In this document: positions 9,492 through 47,853 of the stretch, piece after piece
How positions within the stretch are numbered: the stretch's first letter is position 1
Layout of the letters: the number at the start of each line of letters is the position of its first letter
Source of the DNA: an uncultured Gammaproteobacteria bacterium
Lineage (GTDB): Bacteria > Patescibacteriota > Patescibacteriia > Magasanikbacterales > UBA922
Length of the DNA: 52,660 nt
Reading direction: 5' to 3'
Assembly (NCBI GenBank): GCA_964473715.1
Contig: CAYYQC010000001.1
Coordinates: forward strand, 3,953-56,612
Program-made: the position numbers and the translations under genes
Notes under the pieces: generated by a model
Databases searched by the model: none
What the model was told of the DNA's origin: nothing
Seen by the model: only the letters and a program-made list of their open reading frames with translations

Positions 9492-9704
9492 TTACGCGTC
9501 CAAGGACGCATGGGGGAAAACATGGAAGTTGGTCTTCTGTTTCAGCACCGCGTCACGCTCCTGATTGTTGGCTCCAAGGCGATCAGCGCTGTCGCCCTCT
9601 TGATCGGCATGATCGGCTGACTCTACCGTCCGCGGGCTTGGAGATTTCTCCAGGCCTTGCGGGCGGCTCAAACAAATATATTTAAGAATGATTGACAAGG
9701 TCAT
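9492..9704 (-). CDS. candidate 70-aa acidic protein, ATGA-coupled to the upstream GT4 gene; mutually exclusive with the plus-strand sORF
   Basis: Its ATG (9704-9702) overlaps the TGA stop (9703-9701) of the GT4 gene. The codon pattern is G-rich at first positions (GCC GAT CAT GCC GAT CAA GAG GGC GAC). No family recognised. Confidence 0.3.
   Translation of the reverse strand: MTLSIILKYICLSRPQGLEKSPSPRTVESADHADQEGDSADRLGANNQERDAVLKQKTNFHVFPHASLDA
9510..9620 (+). CDS. candidate small hydrophobic peptide (36 aa from ATG 9510, or 32 aa from ATG 9522); mutually exclusive with the minus-strand ORF 9492-9704
   Basis: Hand translation: MGENMEVGLLFQHRVTLLIVGSKAISAVALLIGMIG, then stop TGA at 9618-9620. 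GGGGGA lies 5 nt before the second ATG. The ORF is below the track's size cut-off and is followed 5 nt later by a long GC-rich hairpin. Confidence 0.3.
   Translation: MGENMEVGLLFQHRVTLLIVGSKAISAVALLIGMIG
9626..9666. other. long GC-rich stem-loop (about 18 bp with one bulge)
   Basis: CCGTCCGCGGGCTTGGAG - ATTT - CTCCAGGCCTTGCGGGCGG pairs with one bulged T and a few G-U pairs. No U-run follows on either strand. Confidence 0.55.
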
Positions 9705-10903
9705 TTTTTTGTTTTATTCAAAAGTTCAGAGTACAAAGCCTCAAGTTTACCAACAATAAGCGGCCAAGCAAATTTATTTTCGGCCACAGCTCGCGCAGCC
9801 GCTCGCCATGCACCTTGGTCAACTTCAGGTTGAAAATATTCAAATAAAATTCTGCACAATTCTTGTGGATTGCCTGGAGCAAAAATTGTTCCAGCTTCAG
9901 CTGCCACAGTCCGTACACCAGGCAGATCACTAGCTACCACTGGCACACCGCTAGCATAGGCTTCAAGTAAAACCATGCCAAACGCTTCACCCACAGTAGT
10001 CGAAGGTAAAATTACTAAATCCGCGTTTTGATAAAAAACAGGTAAATCTTCATCACTCACTCGCCCAACAAATTTTACTAACTGCGCCACACCAAGACCT
10101 TGGGCTTTTAATTCATATTCAGCGCGAAGTTCTCCGTCTCCAACTAAAATAGCTTGAACTTGACTGCCCGCATTTTTGGCCAATAATATCGCTTCTAATA
10201 AAACCATTACTCCTTTAAAAAAATGTGCTTGGTCCATTCCACCAACAAAAAGTACTGTGGGCAAATTTGGATCTAATCCTTGGGCGGCAATAAAATTTGA
10301 ATCAATAGGTGCAGGACAAAAACGTTTGGTATCCACACCAAACGGGAGTTCTACCCACTTAAGTGGATTGCTCGCAAAAACTGCGGCCGCATCACTGGCG
10401 CGTGCATAATCAAAAGAACTGGCAATAATTTTATCAGCTACTTTTAAAATTTTTGGTAAATAATATTTAGAATATAATTTGAAAAATAATCCAATCCAAC
10501 CTGGCGCGCGTGTATCCATGTGATACGTAATGACCAATGGCTTAAGAGGATTTTTTACTTTCCAACGACGCACCAAATTAGCCGTACCAAAAAAAGGATA
10601 ATGTAAATGTACTAAATCAAATTGTTCTAATTCTTTATCTAAATTTGGTAAACGCGCGGCATTGCCATAAGTAATAGTTGGTTCTAAACGACGAACAAAA
10701 TCAAGATCTTTTTGGAGTGATGGGGCATGCGTTTTTTCCGGTTCTGCTTCGGCGGGTTTTATTTCTTGTTCTTCGTAATAATCAGGGGTAATAACTTCCA
10801 CACTGTGCCCGCGTTTGGCCAATTCCACGGCCGTTTCAAAAACCACCGTGCCCATACCACTATAATAGGGCGGAAAACGACAAACTATATGGGCGATTTT
10901 CAT
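9701..10903 (-). CDS. GT4-family glycosyltransferase
   Basis: 400 aa, GT-B pattern with the E-x7-E motif GEAFGMVLLEAYASGVPVV. Confidence 0.85.
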   Translation of the reverse strand: MKIAHIVCRFPPYYSGMGTVVFETAVELAKRGHSVEVITPDYYEEQEIKPAEAEPEKTHAPSLQKDLDFVRRLEPTITYGNAARLPNLDKELEQFDLVHLHYPFFGTANLVRRWKVKNPLKPLVITYHMDTRAPGWIGLFFKLYSKYYLPKILKVADKIIASSFDYARASDAAAVFASNPLKWVELPFGVDTKRFCPAPIDSNFIAAQGLDPNLPTVLFVGGMDQAHFFKGVMVLLEAILLAKNAGSQVQAILVGDGELRAEYELKAQGLGVAQLVKFVGRVSDEDLPVFYQNADLVILPSTTVGEAFGMVLLEAYASGVPVVASDLPGVRTVAAEAGTIFAPGNPQELCRILFEYFQPEVDQGAWRAAARAVAENKFAWPLIVGKLEALYSELLNKTKK

Positions 10904-11235
10904 AAGCGCTTATCCTTATTTTCCAAGGCATTCCGGCGCACCACCTTAGTAATATCGCGCTGTACAGATTCCAATTTTACCGAAAGGCGAAAAATTGTGA
11001 GAAGGAGAAATGCAAGCGCGCAATAAATAACCAGGTCAACGCCACGACCAATACCCAACAAATCAGCCGCGGTTTGAACACTATTTGGATACCACGCCAT
11101 CACCAGCATGGTTATCCAAATTAAAAGCCACCAGGCTGTGCCACGAATACTGAGTAATCCTTCTCGGCGACGCTGCCAAACCAAAAACGCACCAGAAACG
11201 GCAAATAAGGTAAAGATTATTTTAAAAAAAATCAT
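10900..11235 (-). CDS. DUF2304-family small membrane protein
   Basis: 111 aa with 3-4 TM helices. It sits immediately after a GT2 gene with a 4-nt overlap, which is the usual GT2-DUF2304 pairing. Confidence 0.65.
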   Translation of the reverse strand: MIFFKIIFTLFAVSGAFLVWQRRREGLLSIRGTAWWLLIWITMLVMAWYPNSVQTAADLLGIGRGVDLVIYCALAFLLLTIFRLSVKLESVQRDITKVVRRNALENKDKRL

Positions 11236-11888
11236 ACTATTTTATTCATAATTAGGTCGCGAATAATTTTAAATCCACCATCTAAATTCTGTCCAAATCT
11301 TTTATACGTAACAATAATTGGCATTTCTGCGTATTGTAAGTTATGTTTGGAAATTAATTGTGGAATTTCGGTAGCATGGGCCATGCGCGCTTGATTCAAG
11401 CGGAGTACATCCAGAGCTGTATGATTAAAAATTCGAAAACCATTATGTGCGTCTGTCAGTGGAGCGGCACCAGCCACTCGTTCAATGAGGCGCGCAATTG
11501 GTAAAATAATATTTTTTTTAAATTTCGGAATATTAGATTCCATTCCCAAAAAACGAGAACCTAAAATAATATCAACTTTAGACTTTTGCAACTGTTCAAT
11601 TCCCTTTTGTACATCTTCTGGATTAAATTGTCCGTCGGCATCAAAATGCACGACAATCTCCGCATTTTTTTGGCGGGCATATTCATGGCCAGTTTCCAAA
11701 GCCGCGCCTTGCCCACGATTAAGTTCATGCACCAAAACCGTGGCCCCAGTAGCCCGAGCTTCTGTTACCGTCCCGTCTGCAGAACCATCATCAACCACCA
11801 CCACTTCATCAACAAATGGCAAAAGACCACGGATAACACCTCCGATATTCTTTGCTTCATTATAGGCTGGAACAATGGCAATTTTCAT
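11232..11888 (-). CDS. GT2-family glycosyltransferase (polyprenol-phosphate sugar synthase-like)
   Basis: VPAYNEAKNI, VVVDDGSADGT and FDADGQ (DxD) motifs. Confidence 0.85.
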   Translation of the reverse strand: MKIAIVPAYNEAKNIGGVIRGLLPFVDEVVVVDDGSADGTVTEARATGATVLVHELNRGQGAALETGHEYARQKNAEIVVHFDADGQFNPEDVQKGIEQLQKSKVDIILGSRFLGMESNIPKFKKNIILPIARLIERVAGAAPLTDAHNGFRIFNHTALDVLRLNQARMAHATEIPQLISKHNLQYAEMPIIVTYKRFGQNLDGGFKIIRDLIMNKIV

Positions 11889-11897
11889 ACCCCCACC

Positions 11898-12920
11898 TTA
11901 CAACAAGGCTTCTTTATTGGCAACCGTGTAATCAATGGTTCGCTGTAAACCGTCTTGAAGCCTAACCAAAGGCAACCAACCCAGGTCTTCTTTGGCACGA
12001 TGTAATTCTGGTTTACCTTTGCGAGTCAAAAATACCAAAGGTGCTTCAAACACAATTCGTGAAGATGAATGTGTCATGCTAATAATTTTTTCGGCAACTT
12101 CAATCATTTTAATTGGCTCTTCTGAACCAATGTTTACAATGCGCAATTCTGGTGAAGTTTTCATTAAACGTACCAAACCATCAACCGTATCAGTCACAAA
12201 ACATAATGATTGTTCCATTTGTCCATCACCATAAATTACCAAGTCCTTACCTTCAATGGCATGTAAAATAAAATCAGGTACAAGCAAACCATCACGCAAT
12301 TTCATCCGCGGACCGTAGGTAGTAAAAATACGCGCAATCTTGGCATCAATTTTATATACTTGTGAGTATGTTTCCACGCAAGTTTCTGCAAAACGTTTAC
12401 CTTCATCATAACAGCCACGCGGTGAAAGATGATTTAATTTTCGTGCCTCATCATCTTCATTAAAAACATTGTGGTCATCTGTCGCATCTCCGTACACTAC
12501 CGAACTAGAACCAAACACATATTTAGCTTTATATTTCACTGCTAAATCAAGCGTAGAAAGCATGGCCCGAGAATTAGCCCACAAAGAATGAATTTTTAAA
12601 TTCTCAAAATTCTTAGGACTCGTTGGGCAAGCTAAATGATAAATTTCTTGAATACCTTGAAACTTTACACGAAATTTATCTAGTTCAGGAAACATGTCCA
12701 AATCTAGTGGCTGATTAACATCATATTTAATAAACTCAAAATCTGGATATTGCAATAAATGTTCAATATTCCGCAAATCAGAATTAGAAAAATCATCGAT
12801 ACAGATAACTTTGGCCTCACGTAATAAACGCTCACATAGATGCGAGCCAATAAAACCTGCTCCACCAGTGACTAAAACATTTTTTTTCTCAAAAATTGGC
12901 ACTTCAGTTGTTCCATTCAT
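11898..12920 (-). CDS. NAD-dependent SDR, UDP-glucuronate decarboxylase (UXS)-like
   Basis: VTGGAGFIGSHL Rossmann motif and YDEGKR (YxxxK). The start was moved to ATG 12920 (MNGTTEVPIF...), which removes the track's 80-nt overlap with the upstream protease gene. Confidence 0.78.
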   Translation of the reverse strand: MNGTTEVPIFEKKNVLVTGGAGFIGSHLCERLLREAKVICIDDFSNSDLRNIEHLLQYPDFEFIKYDVNQPLDLDMFPELDKFRVKFQGIQEIYHLACPTSPKNFENLKIHSLWANSRAMLSTLDLAVKYKAKYVFGSSSVVYGDATDDHNVFNEDDEARKLNHLSPRGCYDEGKRFAETCVETYSQVYKIDAKIARIFTTYGPRMKLRDGLLVPDFILHAIEGKDLVIYGDGQMEQSLCFVTDTVDGLVRLMKTSPELRIVNIGSEEPIKMIEVAEKIISMTHSSSRIVFEAPLVFLTRKGKPELHRAKEDLGWLPLVRLQDGLQRTIDYTVANKEALL

Positions 12921-12921
12921 A

Positions 12922-14979
12922 TTAGCGAGGTAAAAGGAAAAATGAGCCAGTAAAAGGTGCAGACCATTCACCCGCGTTTTTAGCGCGCGCAGTCCACGCA
13001 CGAATTGGACCAGCAGTATTGGCAGAATAGGTTAGTAAGTCTTGAGTACCGTTGGCATCAGCATCAACCACAATTACGCTTACTCCATTTTTCCGACCAT
13101 CTCCAAATGGAGAAAATGAACGCAACAACTCACCTTCACCATTATAAATACTAACCACATCAGACATTCCAGGACTGGCCCCCAGTACCACATCACCAGT
13201 TTCTTTATTAACTGCAATTGAAGGGTGTTTACCAAGATCAGACACTTCAAAAGTCATCGAAGGCAGTTCACCAGGAACTACTTCTTCAAAAATATTTACA
13301 ACTACTTTATTTTCCAAGTCATACACGACATATACTTTTCCACCAACCATGGCAATAGAAGCGCCTTTGTGCGCCGTGTATTGATTACTGACTTCTTCAA
13401 ACACCACTCCAGAATCATTGTACACAATAAAGGTGGTTTTATGTGGCACAGTAGGAGCCAGAGCCACGGTAATATTTCCGGTTTTATCTTTGCCTATAGC
13501 CACTTGCACAGGCACACTCAATGTTGAGTTCCATGTTTTTTGTAATTGCCATTTATTATTATAAATAGAAACCACGCGCACATTTTTTGCACCAACTTTT
13601 ACCGTCGCAATAATTTGATCAGCCCCAGTACCATGCGCAGCAGCACTTTCAATATTTTTTGCTTCAGGCCGTTCATATTGCCCACCAAGTTCAAATGAAT
13701 CATTGTACGCGTCACGCATTTGACCAACAGCACCAACGGCTACAAATGTTTTTACATGTACTGGCTTAACTGGAGTCGTATCAAGAACCGGTTTAGTAAC
13801 CGGAACAGTTGTAGTTGGAGTTACGGGAATAGCAATAGGAATATTTACGTCAGTAGAAGTTTGGAACATGGTTAGTGGTAATTCGCGACCTTGCGCATAA
13901 GCCACAGCACGATGCACTTGCAACAACCCTTTGCCATATAGATTTGCATAGGCTTCTTCATCCTGAGATGGTGTGTGATGAGTGGTTGTCAGAATGGCCT
14001 GATAAATTTCTTTTGCGCTCCATTCTGGTTTAGCACTTTTTACCAAAGCCGCGGCTCCAGATACAAATGGAGCAGCAAATGAAGTGCCTTGCCAATTATC
14101 TTTGTATGTTTCATTCAAAGCACTTTCTGGAGCAAATCGAATTAAGGAATTAATACTAACTCCAGGCGCAGTAATATCTACACATTTTGTACCAGTATTG
14201 GAAAAATAAGCTAAACGTCTGTCTTGTCCCACGGCGCTAACACCAAGCACATGAGGTTCAATTTCATTTGCATCACTGCAAGCAGGATATCGTGGTTGTA
14301 CGGAAGCATTGCCATTATAATTTCCCATGGCCGCTACCACGACCACACCATTTGCATACGCATAATCAATGGCTTCATCTACTTGAGAAGCGCGATCACC
14401 CGCCATACTAATATTAATCACATCAGCGCCATTATCTACTGCGTATCGAATCGCATCAGCCACTGGTAAAAAATTTCCAAATCCATCATTACCTAAAACT
14501 TTTAAATTCATTAGTTTTACATTCCAAGCCACGCCAGCTCCATCACGACCATTATTTCCTACTGCACCAATAATCCCAGCCACAAAAGTGCCGTGATTAT
14601 ATAATTCATCTTTTTTTTCAGCTGCACCTAAATTTGAAACATTTGGCTGCGGATTATTATTGTCATCTAAAAAATTCCAACCCCACACATCATCAATGTA
14701 TCCATTTTCATCATCATCTACTTGATTGCCCGGACTTTCTTTAACATTTTTCCAAACATTTCCTACTAAATCTGGATGAAAAGTGTCAAAACCATTATCA
14801 ATCACCGCCACCACCACCTCAGGCGAACCAACCGCAAAATCCCAGGCACGATAAACACCAGCCTGTTCATACCCAAATTGATAGACCCTAGGGTCGTTAC
14901 TGAGCAAAGCCCAAGAAACTTGAGGCAGAGCAATACCAAGGACAGTCAGGATAAAAATGAGGGAGAAAAAGCGTTTCAT
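12922..14979 (-). CDS. secreted S8 (subtilisin-like) serine peptidase with a C-terminal FG-GAP-like beta-propeller region
   Basis: Signal peptide MKRFFSLIFILTVLGIALPQVSWA. Catalytic triad contexts are VAVIDNG (Asp), HGTFVAGIIG (His) and GTSFAAPFVSGAAAL (Ser). The C-terminus contains DADANGTQD. ATG 14979 is preferred over the track's TTG at 14997. Confidence 0.87.
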   Translation of the reverse strand: MKRFFSLIFILTVLGIALPQVSWALLSNDPRVYQFGYEQAGVYRAWDFAVGSPEVVVAVIDNGFDTFHPDLVGNVWKNVKESPGNQVDDDENGYIDDVWGWNFLDDNNNPQPNVSNLGAAEKKDELYNHGTFVAGIIGAVGNNGRDGAGVAWNVKLMNLKVLGNDGFGNFLPVADAIRYAVDNGADVINISMAGDRASQVDEAIDYAYANGVVVVAAMGNYNGNASVQPRYPACSDANEIEPHVLGVSAVGQDRRLAYFSNTGTKCVDITAPGVSINSLIRFAPESALNETYKDNWQGTSFAAPFVSGAAALVKSAKPEWSAKEIYQAILTTTHHTPSQDEEAYANLYGKGLLQVHRAVAYAQGRELPLTMFQTSTDVNIPIAIPVTPTTTVPVTKPVLDTTPVKPVHVKTFVAVGAVGQMRDAYNDSFELGGQYERPEAKNIESAAAHGTGADQIIATVKVGAKNVRVVSIYNNKWQLQKTWNSTLSVPVQVAIGKDKTGNITVALAPTVPHKTTFIVYNDSGVVFEEVSNQYTAHKGASIAMVGGKVYVVYDLENKVVVNIFEEVVPGELPSMTFEVSDLGKHPSIAVNKETGDVVLGASPGMSDVVSIYNGEGELLRSFSPFGDGRKNGVSVIVVDADANGTQDLLTYSANTAGPIRAWTARAKNAGEWSAPFTGSFFLLPR

Positions 14980-15050
14980 CTTGATTTTTTCGCTCAAATA
15001 TGGTTAATTATGTGGGTATACTATACCATGTTTTACTTCTTGCCCGCAAT

Positions 15051-16442
15051 ATGAATTTTACCTATAGACTAAAGCAAATCATTCTTCTCGCCGGTGACCT
15101 CATTGTTACCACCCTCGCTCTCTTTCTCAGTTTGACTCTTCGTCAACTTTCTTTGCCTTCAGCCAATATCATTGCTACACATTTACCATTATTACTCATG
15201 CTCATTGTTGTATGGGGAATAAGTAATTACATCAATGGCTTATACGAGCTCGGCCGTTTAAACCAAGCAGACAGAGTACGTCGTTTATCTCAGGCCGCGA
15301 TCATGTCATTTTTTTTGAGTGTGATGGCTTTTTACGGATTTGGTAATACAGCAGTGACACCAAAAACTATTTTGCTTTTAAGTATTACCATTGGATACAC
15401 CTTATTTGGTTTATGGCGTTTGGCTTTTAGTCACATTCTTTCCTTGTCACGATTACAGACCAAAGTAATTATGGTGGGTTATGATGAAGAAACCAAAGTG
15501 CTCACAGAAATTATTGCAGCCAATCCAGGGAAAGGTTACGCTGTGGTAGCAATTTTTGACCCAAGCCATACTTTAAAAAGTCATCAAGTGCCACAAGGAA
15601 TTAGTATTCATACTAATCTCACTACTTTGCGCGCCGCGATTACAAATTATAAAGCGCAATTAGTTGTGCCTGCACCAAGTATTTCAAGTAGCCACGAAGT
15701 GATGAGTGAATTATATGAATTATTATTTTGGCCAGTACAAATTAGTGAATTTTCTAGTTTATACGAAGTAATTACTGGACGTGTTCCAGCTTCTAGTTAT
15801 TCAGATAGTTGGTTTATTACAAATTTAGTCAATCATGACAGTGCTTTGTACGAAAGTATACGTCGTTTAATTGATTTTGTAGCCGCGATTATTTTGGGGG
15901 TGATTGCTCTAATTTTCTTCCCCTTTATTGCAGCGGCAATTCGATATGAGTCCAAAGGTCCAATTATTTTTAAACAAGTGCGTGTAGGTTGGAGAAGTAA
16001 ACATTTTTTCTTGTATAAATTTCGCACCATGTACGCACTTGCTGCTGACGGTAGTGCGGAAAAAGGCGCGGCTCAATTTGCCGAAACCAATGATAGTCGA
16101 ATTACTAAAGTGGGAAATTTTTTACGTAAAACTCGTTTAGATGAATTGCCACAAGCTTGGAATTTATTTAAGGGTGATATTACCTTAATTGGTCCACGTC
16201 CTGAACGTCCAGAGATTGTGACAAAATTAGAAACCGCTTTACCGTATTATCATTTGCGCTTACTAGTAAAACCGGGCATGACTGGTTGGGCAGCTATCAA
16301 CCAACATTATGCTGGTACACTCGAAGAAGCAATTAAAAAACTGCAGTACGATTTATTTTATATTAAAAACCGGTCCTTACTTTTGGACATGGCGATTGTA
16401 CTAAAAACCGTAAACGTCATTCTCAGAATGATGGGAAGATAG
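15051..16442 (+). CDS. polyprenyl glycosylphosphotransferase (WbaP/EpsL-type priming sugar transferase)
   Basis: N-terminal TM helices, a central Rossmann-like segment, and a C-terminal bacterial sugar transferase domain with KFRTM, DELPQ and GPRPE motifs. Start taken at ATG 15051. Confidence 0.88.
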   Translation: MNFTYRLKQIILLAGDLIVTTLALFLSLTLRQLSLPSANIIATHLPLLLMLIVVWGISNYINGLYELGRLNQADRVRRLSQAAIMSFFLSVMAFYGFGNTAVTPKTILLLSITIGYTLFGLWRLAFSHILSLSRLQTKVIMVGYDEETKVLTEIIAANPGKGYAVVAIFDPSHTLKSHQVPQGISIHTNLTTLRAAITNYKAQLVVPAPSISSSHEVMSELYELLFWPVQISEFSSLYEVITGRVPASSYSDSWFITNLVNHDSALYESIRRLIDFVAAIILGVIALIFFPFIAAAIRYESKGPIIFKQVRVGWRSKHFFLYKFRTMYALAADGSAEKGAAQFAETNDSRITKVGNFLRKTRLDELPQAWNLFKGDITLIGPRPERPEIVTKLETALPYYHLRLLVKPGMTGWAAINQHYAGTLEEAIKKLQYDLFYIKNRSLLLDMAIVLKTVNVILRMMGR

Positions 16443-16444
16443 TT

Positions 16445-18501: not shown

Positions 18502-18502
18502 A

Positions 18503-19915: not shown

Positions 19916-20030
19916 AGTATATTTTGCTTAAAAATATACTATACCCCAAAGAAATAATCAAGTTTTTAAAAAGCAAGTTTTTGGCTATTTTTCTTGCTTT
20001 TTGGCTTATTTCAGACTAAACTATAGGGGT

Positions 20031-22023: not shown

Positions 22024-22024
22024 A

Positions 22025-26097: not shown

Positions 26098-26107
26098 AAA
26101 AAGATGA

Positions 26108-27106: not shown

Positions 27107-27109
27107 AGA

Positions 27110-27748: not shown

Positions 27749-27750
27749 AA

Positions 27751-28866: not shown

Positions 28867-28869
28867 AGG

Positions 28870-30141: not shown

Positions 30142-30146
30142 AATAA

Positions 30147-31823: not shown

Positions 31824-31824
31824 A

Positions 31825-33191: not shown

Positions 33192-33211
33192 ACCATTACC
33201 GCAATTTATGT

Positions 33212-34225: not shown

Positions 34226-34280
34226 ATCATTTTAAAATCTGCCCCTATTGTACGGTATTTTTTAAATAAAAGCAACCTTC

Positions 34281-35330: not shown

Positions 35331-35331
35331 A

Positions 35332-37472: not shown

Positions 37473-38584
37473 ACTTTTTTTTGAAAAAGTTCCCCCATGC
37501 GTACACTCACTTTTTTCCAATTAAATTCGGCCAAAACTAAATCATGTGCATTTTGAATCACTGCTTTTTTAAGTGCTTCATCTGCTTGCACACGTTTCAC
37601 AGCTTCAGCAATTGATTCAGGATTATGTGGCTCGCACAAATATCCTGTTTTTCCTTCATGCAAAAAATCAGGAATTCCACCCACTGGTGTACCAATTACC
37701 GGCACATTCACAGCCATAGCTTCTAAAAAAGCATTTCCTAAACCTTCAGATAAACTTGGTCTGCAAAAAATATCTGCTTCACGCAAATATTCTGGTAATT
37801 CTTTATAATCCACAGTTCCCAAAAAATGCACTTGTTTAGATTTACCAATATTGTCAGCCAAATTTTTAAGTTCAGTTTCCAAAGGCCCGCTTCCAGCTAA
37901 AACCAACTGAGTATTGGCAGGTAAAAATTTCAAAGCTGAAATTAAATCAGCAATCCCATTTTTCGGTACTAACCGCGACACAGACATAATCATCACATCT
38001 TCAGCGCGCAATCCCAATTGCGTTCGCAACCAGCCATGTGTTTTAGTAAACGTGTAATCAAAGAAAAATTCTGGTACACCATTTGGAATCACGGAAATAT
38101 TTTTTCCCCCCAACTGTTTGGCCCAATCAGCTAAGTAATTACTAATAGTTTGAATCGCGTTAGCGCGCGTAAAAATTTGTTTAAACCAGGGCCAGCACCA
38201 CCATACCCGCGCGTATATATGCGCAAAAGAATCTCCTTCTTGCAAAGTCAAGAGATATGGCACGGCAGGATTTTTCTTTTTAAAAAATAAAGCCGCAAAC
38301 CCAGCATAACTAGCCATAATAGACCAAATTGCTTTTGGTTTATAAGTAGCGGCCACTTTTGGGCCACTAAAAATCAGGCGAATTTTATCCCACGCATTTC
38401 CTATCCCAATCCGATGAATCAGGACATTTCCTTGCTCCTCAATTTCTGGAAGATCTGCGCGCAAGCGAGCAGTAATGACAATAAAATTAGTTTCAGGGAG
38501 ACGACTAGTAATTTCCCGCACTGCGACTTCAGCTCCACCAACCAAGGGAAAATAGGCAGTGGAAAAAATCAGAATCGGCTCCAT
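37469..38584 (-). CDS. GT4-family glycosyltransferase
   Basis: SEGLGNAFLEAMAVNVPVI motif; 371 aa. Confidence 0.84.
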   Translation of the reverse strand: MEPILIFSTAYFPLVGGAEVAVREITSRLPETNFIVITARLRADLPEIEEQGNVLIHRIGIGNAWDKIRLIFSGPKVAATYKPKAIWSIMASYAGFAALFFKKKNPAVPYLLTLQEGDSFAHIYARVWWCWPWFKQIFTRANAIQTISNYLADWAKQLGGKNISVIPNGVPEFFFDYTFTKTHGWLRTQLGLRAEDVMIMSVSRLVPKNGIADLISALKFLPANTQLVLAGSGPLETELKNLADNIGKSKQVHFLGTVDYKELPEYLREADIFCRPSLSEGLGNAFLEAMAVNVPVIGTPVGGIPDFLHEGKTGYLCEPHNPESIAEAVKRVQADEALKKAVIQNAHDLVLAEFNWKKVSVRMGELFQKKV

Positions 38585-38645
38585 AGTGGTCTATTTTTTG
38601 CTTATTCTTGAAGTTTTTTGATATTTCTAGTATGCTCTTTCCTAT

Positions 38646-39788
38646 ATGAAAAGTCAACCGTCCCACCCCGACATTTTATACATTATTACCCAAGGAAATT
38701 GGGGTGGTGCGCAGCGCTATGTTCATGATTTAGCCCAAGAAATGGCCGCCAATTTTCAGGTAATGGTGGGAGCTGGTAAAACCCAGGGCACCCAAGAACT
38801 TCTAAACAAAGTTGAGACAGCCGGACTCCACACTTACCATTTCCGCCATTTAGTACGCCACATCTCACCTTGGCATGACATAGCCGCGATTTGGGAATTA
38901 AAAACTGCCTTCCAAACTCTAAAACCTCGCCTCGTCCACTTAAACAGCTCTAAGGCGGGAATTATTGGTACTTTGGCAGCCTTACTCATTTCTGCCAAAG
39001 AACGTCCCACCATCGTGTACACGGCTCATGGCTGGGTTTTCAATGAACCTCTACCCTGGATTACTAAGCAAATATATTTTTATTTAGAAAAATGGACTGC
39101 GCAGGGCAAAGATGCAATCATTGTTACTTCACCAGAAGAAGCACTTGTGGCCACTGAACAATTAAAAATCCCCTCTCACAAAGTTTCTTATATTCCTCTG
39201 GGCTTAGATGCGCCACAATTTTTTAATCCTGAGCAAGCTCGCGCACAGGTTCTAAAAAAAGTTCAGGCAAATTCTGAATCAATTTCTGAAAGCGTGCCGT
39301 GGCATGCAACCATTGCTAATAGTTACCGCACCAAAGGTTTAGATATTTTACTATCTGCAATTAGCCAAAGTAAAAACCCGGCTGAATATTTTATCATTGG
39401 TCACGGCCCAGAACAAACCAAATTAATTAACCAAGCTAAAAAATACAATTTAAAACAAGTACATTTTCTAGGCGCTATTCCCAATGCCGCAGAATTACTC
39501 CAAGCCTTTGATGGATTTATTTTACCTTCACGCAAAGAAGGCTTACCTTATGCCCTACTTGAAGCACTTTCTGCAGGTATTCCAATCATTGCCACGCGAG
39601 TAGGCGGCATCCCTAGCTTAGCAAAAAAATATTCTAACATCACCATAATTGACCCAGAAAATTCCCATGAATTAACCGCAGCCTTACAAAATTTTTCACA
39701 CAATCAAACCAAAGCCCAACACATTTCTTCAGCACAAGACATGGCCACAGAAACTACTTCTCTATACAAAAAAATCTCTCTTAAATAA
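38646..39788 (+). CDS. GT4-family glycosyltransferase
   Basis: KEGLPYALLEALSAGIPII motif. It is transcribed divergently from the 17-gene minus-strand operon. Confidence 0.84.
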   Translation: MKSQPSHPDILYIITQGNWGGAQRYVHDLAQEMAANFQVMVGAGKTQGTQELLNKVETAGLHTYHFRHLVRHISPWHDIAAIWELKTAFQTLKPRLVHLNSSKAGIIGTLAALLISAKERPTIVYTAHGWVFNEPLPWITKQIYFYLEKWTAQGKDAIIVTSPEEALVATEQLKIPSHKVSYIPLGLDAPQFFNPEQARAQVLKKVQANSESISESVPWHATIANSYRTKGLDILLSAISQSKNPAEYFIIGHGPEQTKLINQAKKYNLKQVHFLGAIPNAAELLQAFDGFILPSRKEGLPYALLEALSAGIPIIATRVGGIPSLAKKYSNITIIDPENSHELTAALQNFSHNQTKAQHISSAQDMATETTSLYKKISLK

Positions 39789-39801
39789 TTTTAAATAAAA
39801 A

Positions 39802-39832
39802 AACAGTCCGTTATAAGCGGGCTGTTTTTTAT
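39802..39832. terminator. bidirectional terminator between convergent genes
   Basis: AACAGTCCG / CGGGCTGTT stem (one G-U pair), loop TTATAAG, with an A-run on the left and a T-run on the right. Confidence 0.7.
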
Positions 39833-39842
39833 TATTTGTAAA

Positions 39843-41909
39843 TTACTGTTTTGTACTGCTCGTAATGGCCGGTAAACCAGCTGCTTCACGTAACCGCGCA
39901 GAGCTTGGGTCATTAAATATCAAACCTGCTCTTTCGCCGCGTAAAAATACTTCTTTAGCACCAGCAACATCCCCTTCTTCCAAATATACACCAGCTAAAC
40001 GCCACCAACCATCTGGAGTTTTTGGACTATGCGCCAAAGTGGTTTCCAAAGCTTCTTTGGCACCTTTATAATCCCGCTCATATAAACGAGATATTGAAAG
40101 CACGTAATATAATTGTTGGCGTTTTGGAGACTTAGTAATCGCATCTTCCATCAGCGCTTTACTTTCTTCAATATAGGCCGGGTTACCAGTTATTTGCGCA
40201 CCTACCAAAGCCAACTGTGCTTCCTGAATATGATAGCGCACATCTAGTGGATGTAATTCACGATTCTTTTTAATTTCTTCGTAAGCAAACGTAAATAATT
40301 TCAAAGTATTTTCCCGGCCATAAATAGAAACCATACCCTGTACCTGACCTTCTGTCATGCGAGCAAAATCCATTCGGTTATCATCAATATGAGGAGTACC
40401 CATTTTATCCATGTCTTTATACTGTGTAATTAGCGAATCAATTAATTTAGCGTCACGATACTGAGTAATCGTGGATAATGATTGCAAAATTTTCCAGGTC
40501 GCACTATTTGCTTTGGCAGGCTTAGTATCAGTGGCATAAATAATTAATAGCATGCACACCATAATTACTGGCATGGCCCAGCCTGGCAAATTTTTAGCAC
40601 GACTTACTTCACCTTTTTCTAGCACCATGGCTGGTGCCGCAATCATAGCCAGCACAAAGTAGAAGTATAGATAAGAAGTAAGATTTTCAAACACAAAAAT
40701 ATTTTGCACCAAGTGCCCAACCAAGAATGACAGAAAGAAAATCATCGTGGACTGTGGTATTTTTCCTGCACGCCAATTTTTCACTGCCAAAGTTGCGGCT
40801 GCACCAAATATTCCAATATAGATAAGCAAACCAAAGGCTCCCTGCACAGTCAAAGTATTGAGCAAAATATTATGCGCATTATCAAACCAAGTTTCAGCCC
40901 AACCACCAATTTCCAAAAATTCTGGACGGTAATTTTGGTTGAATACATAGGCATAATTATTTGGCCCCCAACCAAAGAATGGTTTTTGCTTCCAGCCTTC
41001 AATCGCAATTTCCCAAGCCATCAAACGTGTACTTACAGTTCCACCACTAATACTTACAGTAGCCAACCGACCAATCACTGGAATACTATCCACAAAAGCC
41101 GTATGTCTAAAAGAAAACAAAACTGCAATCAGCACTATGCCACCAAGCATTACTCCGCCCAATGTTTTGCGGATTGGTAGCGAAACTTTTTTACTAAAAG
41201 TAACCAAAAGCAAAGCCATGCCAACAGCTGCCAATAAACCCAAGAAAGGTCCACGACTATCACTTAAGAAAATTCCCACCACACCAAACAAAGCGGCAAT
41301 ACCTCCAAACCATTGTTGCCATTTTTCTTTTGGAGTGGAAGAAAAAACTAGCCAAGCCCCCAGTGCGGCCATAAAAAATCCAAGCGCACCCAAATAAATT
41401 GGATTACCTAGGGTTCCGCCAACACGTACACTACCGTGATTATACAAAAAATCTGTATTAAACTTTTGTATGACACCAATCAGCATGATAAATATCCCAG
41501 TACCAGCAAACCACATGGAAAGGTTCCGCCACTCTTCACGCGTTTTAATTACCGCACTCAAGATAATAAAGAATAAGATGTAGTGCGCAAAAGTAAATAA
41601 ACCAAGCATGCGTTCATGTCCGTCCCACATACTGCGGTATGGATCTGCACCAACATAAGTAGAAATCACCCAAGAAACAAAAAATAAACCAATGGCTCCA
41701 CTTACCCAGTTCAAGCGTGGTTTATATTTTTGCCAATCCATGGCCAATAATCCAGCATAACACCCAGTCATGAGCAAAACCGTAGTTCTAAACCAAATGG
41801 CTTTTGGAAATACAAAAGGGAAAATTTGTGACTCTGGTCTAATAATCAAAGCTGAAAAAAAAGCCACTACAGTTAGCCAAAATATACTCTTTTCTAAAAA
41901 CCGATTCAT
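39843..41909 (-). CDS. Wzy_C (O-antigen ligase/polymerase-like) membrane protein with a C-terminal TPR domain
   Basis: 688 aa, polytopic. Wzy_C signature SDSRGPFLGLL...FDNAHNILLNTLTVQGAFGL. The C-terminal 200 or so residues have TPR-like repeats (YKGAKEALETTLAHSPKTPDGWWRLAGVYLEEGDVAGAKE). Confidence 0.8.
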   Translation of the reverse strand: MNRFLEKSIFWLTVVAFFSALIIRPESQIFPFVFPKAIWFRTTVLLMTGCYAGLLAMDWQKYKPRLNWVSGAIGLFFVSWVISTYVGADPYRSMWDGHERMLGLFTFAHYILFFIILSAVIKTREEWRNLSMWFAGTGIFIMLIGVIQKFNTDFLYNHGSVRVGGTLGNPIYLGALGFFMAALGAWLVFSSTPKEKWQQWFGGIAALFGVVGIFLSDSRGPFLGLLAAVGMALLLVTFSKKVSLPIRKTLGGVMLGGIVLIAVLFSFRHTAFVDSIPVIGRLATVSISGGTVSTRLMAWEIAIEGWKQKPFFGWGPNNYAYVFNQNYRPEFLEIGGWAETWFDNAHNILLNTLTVQGAFGLLIYIGIFGAAATLAVKNWRAGKIPQSTMIFFLSFLVGHLVQNIFVFENLTSYLYFYFVLAMIAAPAMVLEKGEVSRAKNLPGWAMPVIMVCMLLIIYATDTKPAKANSATWKILQSLSTITQYRDAKLIDSLITQYKDMDKMGTPHIDDNRMDFARMTEGQVQGMVSIYGRENTLKLFTFAYEEIKKNRELHPLDVRYHIQEAQLALVGAQITGNPAYIEESKALMEDAITKSPKRQQLYYVLSISRLYERDYKGAKEALETTLAHSPKTPDGWWRLAGVYLEEGDVAGAKEVFLRGERAGLIFNDPSSARLREAAGLPAITSSTKQ

Positions 41910-41964
41910 AAAATATTCACATTAATTACAGGCCCAGTATAGCCTATTCAATTAGGCTTGTAAA

Positions 41965-41997
41965 CAAAAACCCTCCCGATAAATCGGGAGGGTTTTG
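41965..41997 (-). terminator. intrinsic terminator of the large surface-protein gene
   Basis: The minus strand reads AAAACCCTCCCGATTTATCGGGAGGGTTTTTG: a 10-bp GC-rich stem plus a T-run. Confidence 0.78.
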
Positions 41998-42007
41998 TCT
42001 AACAAAG

Positions 42008-42039
42008 CTCAGTTAACCCGAAGGTTAAATCAAGCTGAG
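42008..42039 (-). other. second stem-loop immediately 3' of the surface-protein stop codon
   Basis: TTAACC (42013-42018) / GGTTAA (42023-42028) with a 4-nt loop, extended by a CTCAG/CTGAG outer helix. Confidence 0.4.
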
Positions 42040-42040
42040 A

Positions 42041-45000
42041 TTAGAGAGAGCGAGACAAGGTAGAACCTACAACATCATAAGAGTCTGATGCAGTAAATGG
42101 ACCAAGTTCACTTGTTGAGTTAACTGGAGTGTAGTAGTAAGCTAATACGCCAGTTGCCCAAGCAGAGTCAGTAAGGTTGTATCCAGTAGCACCATCAAGC
42201 ATTGGACTTACAGTCACAACACCTGTTGTTTTACCATTGAGTACACCTGTAGTGTCAGCAGTCACGATAAAGGTACGTGAACCACCGGCTGGGATTGTGA
42301 AGTTGTTCAATGCTGAACCGTTCTGGCCCATGGTACCAAGGGTAACAGAGATAGAACTTGTTGAAGCAGAGAAGTAACAACCTGCGGTGTTTTGGTTACC
42401 AACAACCAATGAACATGAGCTTGAAGTGGTCAAAAGTTGACCCTTGCTGCCCTGTGCATTAGATTCCCACAACTTGAATGTGTTGAGGGTACCACTTACG
42501 GTGTTGTTACCAGTCATACCACTGGCTGAGATCTTCACAGTTGTACTACCAAGGCGCAATTCGCGATCGCCAGGGTTGTAAACAGTATACTTGAAGATTG
42601 GGGCTTCAGAACCCAATTCCAAACTTGAACCAAGGCTCACAGGAGTGATCACTGGTGCAGTGTTGTGGAAAAGGTGAGCAGTTGAAGAAGCAATTGTGCC
42701 TCCAACTTGGCCGTCGCCAGCCAAACCATCAAGTTGAGAACCACTCAAAGTACCACCTGAACTGGAAACCAATTCAAGGTTAGTACTTGAAGTACTGCGG
42801 AGAGCCAAGTAACTGATATTGCCTGGAGTCATTACGTTTGACGCATTAACAGCAGACTTAACTACCAAGAACTTGTAAGTATTAGCAGGAACAGTGAGGC
42901 TAAGACCAGTAAACTGAACATAACCATTACCTGTACCACCAATATATTGACCAGTTCCAACAGAAGTGTTCATGTCAGCTGAGTCATAGAGGAAGAAAGT
43001 ACCATAATCACTACTTGTAGTGTTTGTAGAACCATCTTTACCAAAATGTACTGAGAAGGTGATCTTTTTCAAGGTCACAGCTTCGTTCTGAGCTTCCAAT
43101 TTCCACTTACCAACTTGAACTGGAGTTGCACTTGGAACCAAAATACTATTGGTTGTAGTGTTGTCATTAGCAGCACTGAGGATTACGTTAGCAGATCCTA
43201 CAGTGAAGTCTTGACCAACAACAGCAGAGTTGTCAGAGTCTGTATTCTGAGTATCAGCACCTACAAATGTGTAAGAAGCGATACTTGAAGACGCAACACC
43301 TGAAGCGTTAGAAAGAATCAAAGCTTTAAGTTTAATAACTTTAACTTCGTTCTTTTTAACAGTGATATTACTCAAGAAACTGTTTGATGAAGTAGCGGCA
43401 GTAGATACGGTTGAACCGTATTGTTCGTTACCAACCCACAATTCCAAGTTCTGGAGCATTGAAGGTGTATCGAATGTGCCGTTGCCAAGGAAACTAACAC
43501 TGAAGTTAGTAAGCTTAACATCTTCAGCAGAGCCAGCCTTAATGGTATATTGACCGATCACTTGGCTTGAGCCAGCAGCGAGGGTGTTGTTACCAAGAGT
43601 ACTGTCTTTAGCCAAAGTTACTTCAGTTGATTCAACAGCAACAGTGTTAGCAGCAGTCAAAGTGCTACCAGGGATGTTGTCTGTGAAGTCAAGAGTAGAC
43701 AAACGTTTTGCATACATGTTACCAACACTTACAGTGAAGGCTGAAACAGAGGTAGCAGATGTAGGAATACTACCGAGTACTTCCAATACTTTTGTTTCAC
43801 CAGACTTGAGGTTCAAGTATTGTGACAATGTGTATTGAGTTGAAGTACTGTTATACAAAGTGTAAGTACTGTCTGAAGCACTAGTAGTCAAAAGGATGTC
43901 GTTACCAACACGCAATTTAACTGAACCAGTCAATTCTTTTTTACCTACAGCGTATGTAGTAGTAGCAATCTTCAAACCGATCTTGCGAACTTCAAGATCT
44001 TCACCAACAGCTTTTACGTTAAAGCGGGCCAAGACAATATCATTGCCACCAGCTGAAACAGATGTTGAAGGAGAATCTGTAGTCTTAGATACAGTTACGG
44101 TACCGGACTTCATTTTGAAGTAACCAGCAGAAGATGAAACAGCTGAGAATGAAGTGGTTGAACCTTCACTAGTAGCACCAATGAAGTAACCTGTACTTGT
44201 ATCCTTAACCATTACATCGTAGTCATTCTGAACTTGAATACGGAACCAGTTGCCTGAACCATCGGCCACAGTGGCACGGAGGGTCAAAACACGGTTTGTA
44301 CTCTTAGGAACAGTGTATGGCTTGTCAAAGTTAACAGTTACGTAGCGATCAGACATCATTTCTGTGCGACCGAGAACTGTGTTATCTGGAGCGAGAACTT
44401 CAAAATTCTTGAGGTCTTCGTCCTTAGCAGTTCCTTGTACGTAGAAAGTAATTTTACTTACTTGGATATCACTATCACCATCGTATTGGATGAACTTGAA
44501 TTTGGAGATTTCTTGTGTCTGACCAATTTCAAGGTTACCAGCAGTACTACTGCCTGGTTCTGTACTCAAACCACCAGCTGAAACACTTCCGAGTTGTACA
44601 TCAGCGACAGAGCCGCCAGATACCAAACTCATGGTGTTACCAGAAACTGGGAATGAACCACTTACAGTACCGTCAGTTTGCACATCAGCCGCAGAAGCGA
44701 TTGAAGCACCAACTGTGCCTGAAGTAGCAGTTGTAGCTAAGTTAAAGGCTACAGTGAAAGAAGTTGTTTGGCCTTTAGCAACTACGATTGGGTAGGTACC
44801 AAAACCAATAGTAACTTTGTTGTCTGAGCTAAATGAGCTCATAACATCACCGTGGCGGTTGCCAGCTGAATCCCAAACACTTACGCCACTAATGTTAGCA
44901 TTAGTTACGAGACCAGTGCGGGTTACAGTTACACCTTTCAATTTAACATCACCGTTAGTAGCAGTAACAGTCACTTTAAGCATGTTGTTGTAAACAGTGC

Positions 45001-45808
45001 CTGCAGCGATTGTAGATGCAGCTGCTGTATCAGCAGCCAAACCAACAGTCAAAACACCGTTAGATGTAGGAGTTGTTGGAACACTACCACCACTCAATTG
45101 TGATGGGTTGTTTACGATAGTAGCAGCAGTAACTGATCCAGAACTCAAAGATACTGAGGAGAATACAGTTGCTGAAACAGTGCGTACATCGTTAACAGCC
45201 TGTGTTGGGAGAGCTCCGTCTACCATTTTGAGAGCATTGTCCCAAACGTAGTAAACAGTAGATTCACCAGCCTTCTTTACCAATTGACCATTGTGGAGGG
45301 TGTTGCCTACGAGAGGAGCACCAACCTGGTAGTTGGAATCAAAGACATCGTTAAGATGAGTAACGAGAGTTGGCCAGTTGGCTCCGTAAAGAGCAACAGC
45401 TTGTGCTTCGTTGTCAATCTTGTGCTTCATGTTGTTTGGACCTACAGCGTAAACTGAAGGAGAGAGGAAACTCTTTACCAAACGTGAACCTGGACGGAAG
45501 TTAACACCACCACCAGCGGCGTAAGCGTCAACACAAGACATGTCAATGGTAGTAATACCACTGAAATCCTTGTACCAGGATTTATATACGGCTTCTGTTG
45601 GGAAGTACATCCGTTTATTCTGACTGTTTACCAAGTAAACAGCAGCATTTCCGGCTACTTTGAACAAGTCTCCGGCTTCGAGCTCTGGACATGTAGCGGC
45701 AGCAGCACCGGCTGGAACAAAGGCTGAAAGGCCAACGCTCCAAGCAACAGTCATGCTAACCACTGACATGGTGAAGAGTTTCTTACCGAATTTCTTCAAA
45801 TTTTGCAT
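42041..45808 (-). CDS. large secreted Ser/Thr/Gly/Val-rich repeat protein, candidate S-layer or cell-surface protein
   Basis: 1255 aa. Signal peptide MQNLKKFGKKLFTMSVVSMTVAWSVGLSAFVPAGAAAA. Long series of beta-strand-like modules of the type G..V.L..F.[VI].A...D[VI].[VL]..[IL].F, and only four Cys. Codon choice differs from the neighbouring genes (many GGT/ACC/GTT/AAC), consistent with high expression. Confidence 0.8.
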   Translation of the reverse strand: MQNLKKFGKKLFTMSVVSMTVAWSVGLSAFVPAGAAAATCPELEAGDLFKVAGNAAVYLVNSQNKRMYFPTEAVYKSWYKDFSGITTIDMSCVDAYAAGGGVNFRPGSRLVKSFLSPSVYAVGPNNMKHKIDNEAQAVALYGANWPTLVTHLNDVFDSNYQVGAPLVGNTLHNGQLVKKAGESTVYYVWDNALKMVDGALPTQAVNDVRTVSATVFSSVSLSSGSVTAATIVNNPSQLSGGSVPTTPTSNGVLTVGLAADTAAASTIAAGTVYNNMLKVTVTATNGDVKLKGVTVTRTGLVTNANISGVSVWDSAGNRHGDVMSSFSSDNKVTIGFGTYPIVVAKGQTTSFTVAFNLATTATSGTVGASIASAADVQTDGTVSGSFPVSGNTMSLVSGGSVADVQLGSVSAGGLSTEPGSSTAGNLEIGQTQEISKFKFIQYDGDSDIQVSKITFYVQGTAKDEDLKNFEVLAPDNTVLGRTEMMSDRYVTVNFDKPYTVPKSTNRVLTLRATVADGSGNWFRIQVQNDYDVMVKDTSTGYFIGATSEGSTTSFSAVSSSAGYFKMKSGTVTVSKTTDSPSTSVSAGGNDIVLARFNVKAVGEDLEVRKIGLKIATTTYAVGKKELTGSVKLRVGNDILLTTSASDSTYTLYNSTSTQYTLSQYLNLKSGETKVLEVLGSIPTSATSVSAFTVSVGNMYAKRLSTLDFTDNIPGSTLTAANTVAVESTEVTLAKDSTLGNNTLAAGSSQVIGQYTIKAGSAEDVKLTNFSVSFLGNGTFDTPSMLQNLELWVGNEQYGSTVSTAATSSNSFLSNITVKKNEVKVIKLKALILSNASGVASSSIASYTFVGADTQNTDSDNSAVVGQDFTVGSANVILSAANDNTTTNSILVPSATPVQVGKWKLEAQNEAVTLKKITFSVHFGKDGSTNTTSSDYGTFFLYDSADMNTSVGTGQYIGGTGNGYVQFTGLSLTVPANTYKFLVVKSAVNASNVMTPGNISYLALRSTSSTNLELVSSSGGTLSGSQLDGLAGDGQVGGTIASSTAHLFHNTAPVITPVSLGSSLELGSEAPIFKYTVYNPGDRELRLGSTTVKISASGMTGNNTVSGTLNTFKLWESNAQGSKGQLLTTSSSCSLVVGNQNTAGCYFSASTSSISVTLGTMGQNGSALNNFTIPAGGSRTFIVTADTTGVLNGKTTGVVTVSPMLDGATGYNLTDSAWATGVLAYYYTPVNSTSELGPFTASDSYDVVGSTLSRSL

Positions 45809-45825
45809 AAATAATTTTTCGCCTA

Positions 45826-47846: not shown

Positions 47847-47853
47847 ACTAGAA

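Follow-up and report, generated by a model that had tools for sequence, protein, structure and literature searches.

A glycan-assembly locus in a Magasanikbacteria-type genome adjoins genes for a candidate S-layer protein and a candidate ligase of the Wzy_C family

Is the glycan made by a large bacterial gene cluster destined for the surface protein encoded at the end of that cluster? This question is raised by a 52,660-nucleotide stretch of DNA from an uncultured bacterium (the window; GenBank assembly GCA_964473715.1, contig CAYYQC010000001.1), in which a glycan locus beginning at position 9701 leads to a gene for a Wzy_C-TPR protein (39843..41909, minus strand) and then to one for a secreted protein of 1255 amino acids (42041..45808, minus strand) that is a candidate surface-layer (S-layer) protein. 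A first-pass annotation, made from the sequence alone, had likened this layout to the slg (S-layer glycosylation) clusters of Geobacillus and Paenibacillus. We put the probability that the Wzy_C-TPR protein is a ligase for slg-like O-glycosylation of the surface protein at about one half. This reading is made more plausible by the adjacency of the surface-protein and Wzy_C-TPR genes when searched from either side, by a TPR domain predicted to lie outside the cell, and by a layout like that of WsfB and PglL.

Adjacency of the surface-protein and Wzy_C-TPR genes

We based gene calls on a listing of open reading frames (ORFs) and on Pfam and NCBIfam profile scans of the window's proteins. Related loci were gathered from both sides: 38 through homologues of the surface protein, to which the closest relative was added (L042, 83% identical), and 4 more from the Wzy_C-TPR side, three of which are available as DNA (L039-L041). 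The loci available as DNA were compared with the window by phmmer, using the window's proteins as queries, and 25 of the close relatives' loci had enough sequence downstream of the surface-protein gene (the close loci). Nearly every homologue that bears a name, whether of the surface protein or of the Wzy_C protein, comes from Candidatus Magasanikbacteria or the Parcubacteria/Patescibacteria group. The window belongs to a Candidatus Magasanikbacteria genome, and the earlier guess that the organism is a member of the candidate phyla radiation (CPR) was right.

In 15 of the 25 close loci, a Wzy_C gene follows the surface-protein gene at a distance of at most 1 kb, and in most of these 15 it is the orthologue of the window's Wzy_C-TPR gene (about 680 amino acids, 37-43% identical). 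In the reverse search, all four Wzy_C-TPR homologues lay 0-2 genes downstream of a gene for a 1221-1503-amino acid protein with no Pfam match, and a pair of genes for an extracytoplasmic function (ECF) sigma factor and an anti-sigma protein was visible upstream in three of the four. Identities to the window orthologues are 37-43% for the Wzy_C-TPR protein, 40-52% for the surface protein and 41-54% for the ECF sigma factor, while the glycan genes beyond Wzy_C-TPR differ widely among genomes. L042 has kept both the arrangement and the glycan genes, except for a fused glycosyltransferase pair and an extra amino-oxidase gene, which lies directly after Wzy_C-TPR. In another relative (JGI 3300072015), the glycan island downstream of the surface-protein and Wzy_C-TPR genes includes export genes of the ABC2_membrane and ABC_tran/Wzt_C families, and Wzy_C-TPR has been kept; at this locus a GIY-YIG gene is inserted between the surface-protein and Wzy_C-TPR genes.

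These arrangements bear on the simplest alternative, that an ordinary capsule or exopolysaccharide island, or one of serotype type, sits beside an adhesin-like surface protein with no functional coupling between them. Glycan islands of such composition are common in bacteria, and the surface-protein model has only generic matches to multi-Ig proteins, so that an adhesin is possible. However, chance is insufficient to explain a two-way adjacency across proteins that are only 37-52% identical, and both the constant length of the surface-protein family and its fixed five-gene cassette with a dedicated sigma/anti-sigma pair (described below) argue against an uncoupled island. Thus, we consider this alternative improbable.

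Architecture of the two proteins and the ligase question

The Wzy_C-TPR protein (688 amino acids), a candidate O-oligosaccharyltransferase (OTase) or ligase, matches Pfam Wzy_C (PF04932; 3e-20, with a domain score of 72.9 bits against a gathering cutoff of 31.7) as well as TPR. Its AlphaFold2 (AF2) model has a mean predicted local distance difference test (pLDDT) score of 88.7 and a predicted template-modelling score of 0.88. The model consists of nine transmembrane helices, an 80-residue loop (267-347) and three transmembrane helices, a WaaL-like core of 12 helices, followed by a long 13th transmembrane helix (445-479) and the TPR domain (488-676). Since lysine and arginine account for 10 of 47 loop residues on the inside and 4 of 54 on the outside, the helix count and the positive-inside rule together predict that the TPR domain is extracytoplasmic, on the same side as the catalytic loop. 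The top match of the model in the Protein Data Bank (PDB) by Foldseek was WaaL (7tpg_B; E 7.7e-8, TM-score 0.67 over the 12-helix core), and a phmmer search of the PDB with the full-length protein reached the same entry (7TPG, E 4e-4, over the Wzy_C region); phmmer with the transmembrane core of Wzy_C alone found nothing in the PDB. Residues R219, R295 and H346 are invariant across 48 Wzy_C-TPR homologues, with a spacing that matches R215/R288/H338 of Escherichia coli WaaL and R224/R298/H349 of PglL, the correspondence being one of spacing (PMC3643930). The external domain, too, has several invariant polar residues, which fits a conserved ligand for this domain despite the variable glycans.

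Polymerases, ligases and OTases of the Wzy_C family are not separable by sequence (PMC3643930), and in this case the genomic context argues for a ligase on three counts. First, the Wzy_C-TPR protein is conserved like core genes while the glycan genes vary. Second, it is retained by the relative with Wzm/Wzt-type export, which needs no Wzy polymerase. Third, where Wzy_C paralogues are paired, the conserved copy is the orthologue of the window's protein. Thus, we judged a Wzy polymerase to be less likely, given conservation at the level of core genes and retention beside the island with the ABC exporter, and the observations fit a glycan-tolerant ligase rather than a polymerase specific for one repeat unit. 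We rejected a classical WaaL, since a CPR monoderm is not expected to contain the lipid A-core to which WaaL transfers its substrate.

The candidate acceptor carries a signal peptide and is rich in serine (12.7%) and threonine (12.0%), as the first-pass annotation had stated; the mature protein has a mass of 126 kDa and a pI of 5.3. Its family has at least 196 members of constant length (about 1240-1300 amino acids); those with a name are all called hypothetical, and almost none has a Pfam domain. Searches with the whole protein against Pfam at E<=5 and against PDB sequences gave nothing usable, and the N-terminal 204 amino acids had neither a Pfam match at E<=5 nor a PDB sequence match. The AF2 model (mean pLDDT 85.8, from a 55-sequence alignment) comprises an N-terminal alpha/beta domain of about 200 amino acids, which is made of three LVK..VY.V repeats, then a disordered linker and about eight beta-sandwich domains. 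The earlier description as a repeat protein is therefore right at the structural level only, as we found no tandem repeats in the DNA and no internal repeats detectable by BLAST. Foldseek returned only generic multi-Ig arrays at TM-scores of about 0.1 (integrins, complement proteins, PrgB, Sap), with the Bacillus anthracis S-layer protein Sap at rank 39, and therefore gave no specific S-layer homology. The modelled architecture, an apparent anchor plus lattice domains, is compatible with an S-layer protein but is no proof of one. The 1255-amino acid protein is our foremost candidate for the major surface (S-layer) protein, on indirect features: a signal peptide, an acidic multi-domain product of 126 kDa, and a monocistronic gene with a structured leader and a strong terminator. 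An S-layer is present and an outer membrane absent in cryogenic transmission electron microscopy of groundwater CPR cells (bioRxiv 10.1101/2020.05.14.094862).

Signals around the surface-protein gene suggest how it is expressed. The gene looks like a heavily expressed structural gene because it is monocistronic, ends at a strong terminator and is preceded by a highly structured leader or intergenic region of 264 nt (45809..46072, minus strand; minimum free energy -107.2 kcal/mol, z -8.3). The terminator, which the first-pass annotation had also placed here, is a hairpin 3' of the stop codon (41962..41998, minus strand) with a CCCTCCCGAT/ATCGGGAGGG stem and then TTTTTGTTT, in a region that folds at -37.4 kcal/mol (z -6.5); a consensus terminator scan overlooked it, and direct reading and folding revealed it. 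The Wzy_C-TPR gene has a promoter-like site of its own (41964-41936) and shares with the converging gene beyond it a bidirectional terminator hairpin (39798..39830; a stem of 15 bp between an A run and a T run), which is reminiscent of wsfB in Paenibacillus alvei, a monocistronic gene (PMC2943079).

Several observations weigh against glycosylation of the surface protein. Ten of the 25 close loci have no Wzy_C or glycan genes adjacent to the surface-protein gene; the position of Wzy_C is occupied by a BipA GTPase gene in nine, which form one subclade, and by a pyruvate kinase gene in the tenth, and six more distant loci likewise lack an adjacent Wzy_C gene. The first-pass annotation had proposed comparing synteny among relatives and had named unlinked loci as evidence against its own idea; the subclade of nine and the single additional locus, which carry the cassette alone, are partly such evidence, whereas the 15 linked loci, the two-way synteny, the external TPR domain and the likeness to WsfB and PglL make the slg-like reading more plausible. 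Moreover, the serine plus threonine content of surface proteins is 0.224 with an adjacent locus and 0.234 without one, and because linked and unlinked loci are thus equal in this respect, we rejected Ser/Thr richness as a marker of glycosylation. In the Wzy_C-TPR protein only Wzy_C and TPR matched, and no PglL_A or PglL_B signature was detected (Pfam, E<=1e-3), an absence that is compatible with OTase activity since the motifs are missing from PilO too (PMC3643930). In several relatives, a tandem pair of Wzy_C paralogues (about 740 and 676 amino acids) follows the surface-protein gene (L001, 13879-18860; L013; L035; L039, 7123-12028; L040, 7653-12031; L041, 5782-10037), and only the shorter is a clear orthologue of the window's Wzy_C-TPR protein; these pairs may be a polymerase and a ligase, or two ligases, and the ligase role proposed for the window's single copy is presumptive. 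Likewise, the S-layer status of the surface protein, its part as acceptor and the composition of the glycan are points that we infer.

Three more such observations come together in a rival explanation. The Wzy_C family includes polymerases; pneumococcal TacL, a lipoteichoic-acid ligase, is reportedly a member as well; and the surface protein might use its N-terminal triple-repeat domain as an anchor that binds glycan. On this view, the product of the locus would be a polysaccharide tied to the wall or to a lipid (a secondary cell-wall polymer or a lipoglycan resembling lipoteichoic acid), with the Wzy_C-TPR protein as its polymerase or as a TacL-like glycolipid ligase, and with the surface protein not its acceptor. 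The triple-repeat domain would then bind the polymer, and the genes would adjoin since both build the envelope, for which the slpA/PS-II region of Clostridioides difficile and the sap-eag/csaB region of B. anthracis offer parallels. A conserved three-repeat N-terminal domain, a disordered linker and a beta-sandwich array are the usual layout of a wall anchor with a lattice, and the inseparability of Wzy_C enzymes by sequence, the cassettes without an adjacent glycan locus and the lack of any relation between Ser/Thr richness and linkage all suit this explanation. However, the N-terminal domain matched none of the wall-binding families SLH, CWB2, LysM and PG_binding (Pfam, E<=5), and a polymer that anchors a conserved domain should itself be conserved, but the glycan genes vary. 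Furthermore, we detected no LCP ligase, Wzz or other gene for wall attachment, either in the window or across 12 related loci that are annotated with 8-10 kb flanks. The conservation of the Wzy_C-TPR protein amid variable glycan genes, and beside an ABC-exporter island, argues against a polymerase as well, whereas a TacL-like ligase would be compatible with it. We regard a wall or lipid-anchored polymer as a serious but less probable alternative to O-glycosylation of the surface protein.

Glycan locus and regulatory cassette

Gene identities, gene order, folds, membrane topology and conserved catalytic residues are given by the tool results, and from them we infer every step of the route by which the surface protein would be glycosylated. 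The priming transferase (15000-16442) would load polyprenyl phosphate, and up to eight family 4 glycosyltransferases (GT4s) would extend a glycan, presumably large because glycosyltransferases are many, that could contain uronic acids and amino-deoxy sugars and could receive methyl, phosphate and de-N-acetyl modifications. This lipid-linked glycan, probably left unpolymerised, would be flipped across the membrane by Wzx. The Wzy_C-TPR protein, as a ligase of the WaaL/PglL/WsfB type, would then hold the exported surface protein by means of its extracytoplasmic TPR domain and transfer the glycan en bloc to Ser, Thr or Tyr residues of this protein. Two small family 2 glycosyltransferases (GT2s) would supply polyprenyl-phosphate monosaccharides that a GT-C enzyme would add outside the membrane, either as branches of the glycan or directly on the protein.

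As judged from sequence, nothing is missing from the gene set that a Wzx-dependent lipid-linked glycan requires, and most of the earlier counts proved correct: one priming transferase and one flippase; eight GT4, two GT2, one GT-C and one Wzy_C protein; and six nucleotide-sugar enzymes (Pfam/NCBIfam). The priming polyprenyl-phosphate glycosylphosphotransferase is of the WbaP/WcaJ class (15000..16442, plus strand; Pfam Bac_transf 5e-58 and CoA_binding_3; NCBIfam TIGR03025, 339 bits, above cutoff), and the Wzx-type flippase (20001..21284, plus strand; Pfam Polysacc_synt 3.5e-11) has multiple hydrophobic segments. A priming transferase and a flippase, as in Wzx/Wzy pathways, are present, Wzz is absent from the window, and the single Wzy_C protein looks more like a conserved ligase than a polymerase, the latter role being less likely. 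No genes for Wzz, an ABC exporter, LCP, TagF or lipid A synthesis were detected anywhere in the window by Pfam or NCBIfam, in keeping, LCP apart, with the absences reported at first.

The locus opens on the left with a GT4 gene (9701..10903, minus strand; Pfam Glycos_transf_1 2.4e-29 and Glyco_transf_4), followed by genes for a small DUF2304 membrane protein (10900-11235, minus strand; Pfam 4e-23) and a GT2 of 218 amino acids (11232-11888, minus strand; Pfam Glycos_transf_2 1e-24; best NCBIfam match PpgS, 177 bits, below cutoff), which are likely to form a polyprenyl-phosphate-sugar synthase pair (10900..11888). Next is a nucleotide-sugar dehydratase/decarboxylase-like enzyme of the short-chain dehydrogenase/reductase (SDR) type (11898..13001, minus strand), in which NCBIfam matches are ambiguous among RmlB, ArnA and UXS; the Pfam Epimerase match (2e-39) begins at residue 42, and translation probably starts some 40 codons after the GTG that is listed. 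The claims that the 32-kb locus is uninterrupted, with every ORF tied to glycan synthesis, fail at this point, since the listing had left out both the DUF2304 protein and a secreted S8 subtilase of 691 amino acids that sits within the locus (12922..14997, minus strand; Pfam Peptidase_S8 1.2e-54). The subtilase has a signal peptide, a Pro/Thr-rich linker and an FG-GAP-like C-terminal region; the mapped related loci yielded no orthologue of it, which suggests an insertion specific to this lineage, and it may process the surface protein.

Beyond the priming transferase lie two NDP-sugar 6-dehydrogenases, one TviB-like (16445-17755, minus strand) and one resembling UDP-glucose dehydrogenase (18503-19915, minus strand), with an S-adenosylmethionine (SAM)-dependent methyltransferase between them (17752-18501, minus strand). 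After the flippase comes a soluble protein of 250 amino acids (21271..22023, minus strand) for which Pfam (even at E<=5), NCBIfam and PDB sequence searches gave nothing usable. This is the one modifying enzyme of the first-pass annotation that did not stand: its FemAB/GNAT-like protein matches no family, whereas the four SAM methyltransferases, the APH-type kinase and the CE4 deacetylase were all recovered. The next block (22025..30141, minus strand) encodes, in order, the CE4 deacetylase, a GT4, the kinase, a methyltransferase, the GDP-mannose 4,6-dehydratase gmd (at 26108; 404 bits against TIGR01472), a methyltransferase, a LegC/PseC-like DegT aminotransferase (at 27751) and a GT4. It is followed by a GT-C membrane glycosyltransferase (PMT_2; 30147-31823, minus strand), a methyltransferase (31825-32502, minus strand) and a 241-amino acid GT2 that resembles Dol-P-hexose synthases (32466-33191, minus strand), which are likely to constitute a module for extracytoplasmic addition of single sugars (30147..33191). 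Both GT2s resemble PpgS and AglJ/Dol-P-hexose-type synthases, with NCBIfam scores below cutoffs, and they probably feed such addition rather than chain extension. We also note that the locus has two putative lipid-phosphate-sugar synthases (the GT2 with DUF2304, and the second GT2) and one GT-C, and that L002 has the same order of GT2, methyltransferase and GT-C, with a GT-C that belongs to the MptA_B family.

The right-hand part of the locus, whose gene order (33212..39788) is kept in L042, consists of an SDR epimerase/dehydratase (33212-34225, minus strand), four GT4 genes (34281-38584, minus strand) and a GT4 gene on the plus strand (38646-39788), which converges on Wzy_C-TPR. Hence the eight GT4-type genes lie at 9701, 22975, 28870, 34281, 35332, 36306, 37469 and 38646, and the six nucleotide-sugar enzymes are the SDRs at 11898 and 33212, the 6-dehydrogenases at 16445 and 18503, gmd and the DegT aminotransferase. 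Two of the GT4 ORFs (36306-37520 and 37469-38584, minus strand) overlap by 52 nt and correspond in L042 to one fused gene of 751 amino acids (11189-13444); they represent either a real split or a frameshift.

The functional unit does not stop at the surface-protein gene, the boundary drawn earlier, and reaches to about 50468. It includes a conserved cassette of five genes, two on one strand (for a DUF11/CLIPPER protein and an HTH_17 regulator) and three on the opposite strand (for the ECF sigma factor, the anti-sigma-like protein and the surface protein). The single-pass anti-sigma-like protein (46073-47290, minus strand; 405 amino acids) has DUF5667 in its orthologues, and the ECF sigma factor (47277-47891, minus strand) has its best NCBIfam match in the BldN family (118 bits, below cutoff). 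BldN of Streptomyces controls the chaplin and rodlin proteins of the surface sheath, an example of a surface layer governed by a sigma factor to which the window's cassette may be loosely comparable. The divergently transcribed HTH_17 regulator (48138-48572, plus strand) is excisionase-like, and beside it is encoded the membrane-anchored DUF11/CLIPPER surface protein (48639-50468, plus strand; 609 amino acids). Most related loci have kept both genes in this divergent orientation, and the DUF11 protein might serve as an anchor or as part of a second layer of the envelope.

The leader that separates the anti-sigma and surface-protein genes had no Rfam match at the gathering threshold. Nine relatives have a long hairpin just 3' of the anti-sigma stop codon (L001, 9778-9843; L002, 9873-9933; L003, 9784-9841; L005, 9764-9827; L007, 9709-9783; L009, 9633-9706; L010, 9655-9712; L011, 1537-1613; L013, 9000-9054), with a basal stem of conserved sequence, UACUGU(A/G)UGGC...GCCAUACAGUA, a variable inner stem and, further downstream, a AAAGGTCGAG box. 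The A-to-G changes in the stem preserve G.U pairs, which points to a structure that acts at the RNA level. The hairpin was not found in the subclade with BipA.

Past the cassette, an open frame of at least 638 codons that continues beyond the end of the window (50746-52659, plus strand) is Cys/Asp-rich, contains Dicty_CTDC repeats (E 4e-17) and has a GC content of 0.48, compared with about 0.39 elsewhere in the window; L005 encodes a 1149-amino acid Dicty_CTDC protein in the same place relative to the DUF11 gene. The housekeeping genes that flank these loci in the window encode IF-2, RNase Y, HU, PBP2 and tRNAs. We also note that many species-representative metagenome-assembled genomes with the cassette (L009, L010, L012, L014, L017, L019-L021, L023, L027-L031 and L036) have unexpected record titles, namely 'uncultured Gammaproteobacteria', 'Candidatus Udaeobacter' or 'Candidatus Saccharibacteria'; on carriers of a Magasanikbacteria-type cassette, such titles look like mislabels or bin contamination.

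Taken as a whole, the unit could be a lineage-specific S-layer module of Magasanikbacteria, combining a new S-layer family, a WaaL-fold OTase with an external TPR arm, a DUF11 partner, control by an ECF sigma/anti-sigma pair and a conserved, structured mRNA leader, and a hypervariable glycan island. We offer this wider proposal tentatively and think it somewhat doubtful. If true, it would be the first defined envelope-glycoprotein system in CPR, with a glycosylated S-layer that differs between strains like a serotype, for example for recognition by host cells or phages in episymbionts.

Comparison with known systems

CPR/Patescibacteria make up a large share of bacterial diversity, and their envelope is known almost only from cryo-EM images (S-layer, monoderm). 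We found no paper on an S-layer protein of Magasanikbacteria or CPR or on its glycosylation and, to our knowledge, neither an S-layer protein nor a pathway for an envelope glycan has been assigned in CPR. For one CPR class, the locus supplies testable candidates: a 126-kDa surface protein, a neighbouring ligase-type enzyme and a variable glycan island.

Like slg loci, the window has an initiating transferase, glycosyltransferases, nucleotide-sugar genes, an export component and a Wzy_C protein in one locus. In the slg locus of Paenibacillus alvei CCM 2051T (SpaA, WsfP, WsfB), as in the window, an initiating transferase, multiple glycosyltransferases and nucleotide-sugar genes occur in a monoderm host, and the O-OTase candidate WsfB, whose gene is monocistronic, combines Wzy_C with a C-terminal TPR, an arrangement that is also found in Neisseria PglL (PMC2943079). 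In contrast, SpaA is of the SLH type and is glycosylated on Tyr, whereas the window's protein belongs to an unannotated family with another N-terminal domain. The window's locus, known from its genes alone, is also much larger (eight GT4s, four methyltransferases and a GT-C module), and its candidate target gene immediately adjoins, inside an ECF sigma/anti-sigma cassette.

The slg locus of Geobacillus stearothermophilus NRS 2004/3a (SgsE, WsaP, WsaB, WsaA, Wzm/Wzt) shares with the window a Wzy_C O-OTase candidate and a methyltransferase, and its Wzm/Wzt-type export is shared by the relative JGI 3300072015. It differs in that the window has Wzx in place of an ABC exporter, a TPR fused to the ligase and no rml genes. 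A separate TPR protein, WsaA, adjoins WsaB in G. stearothermophilus (PMC2943079), and similarly a 235-amino acid TPR protein lies upstream of Wzy_C in L005.

The Wzy_C domain and the Arg/Arg/His triad are common to the window's protein, Neisseria PglL, Acinetobacter PglL-ComP and Pseudomonas PilO. The genes for PglL enzymes usually adjoin those of their targets (PMC3643930), as the Wzy_C-TPR gene adjoins that of its candidate target here. However, the known targets of PglL and PilO are pilins in diderms, and the window's protein has negligible identity to any characterised OTase. Cupriavidus metallidurans WaaL (7TPG), its best structural match, is only 16% identical and has neither the 13th transmembrane helix nor the TPR domain.

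The proposed single-sugar modules have counterparts in mycobacterial PpgS (Rv3631), Rv3632, which we take to be a DUF2304 protein, and the GT-C Rv3779, and in actinobacterial Ppm1/Pmt: as in the window, a small GT2 occurs with a DUF2304 protein, and a second GT2 beside a GT-C (PMT_2). The shared logic would be a lipid-phosphate monosaccharide donor used outside the membrane, with the window's scores all below family cutoffs. Thus, if the surface protein is indeed O-glycosylated by the Wzy_C-TPR ligase, the mechanism would be a familiar one, but placed in an unstudied phylum, directed to a new family of target proteins and embedded in a cassette with sigma/anti-sigma and leader-RNA control.

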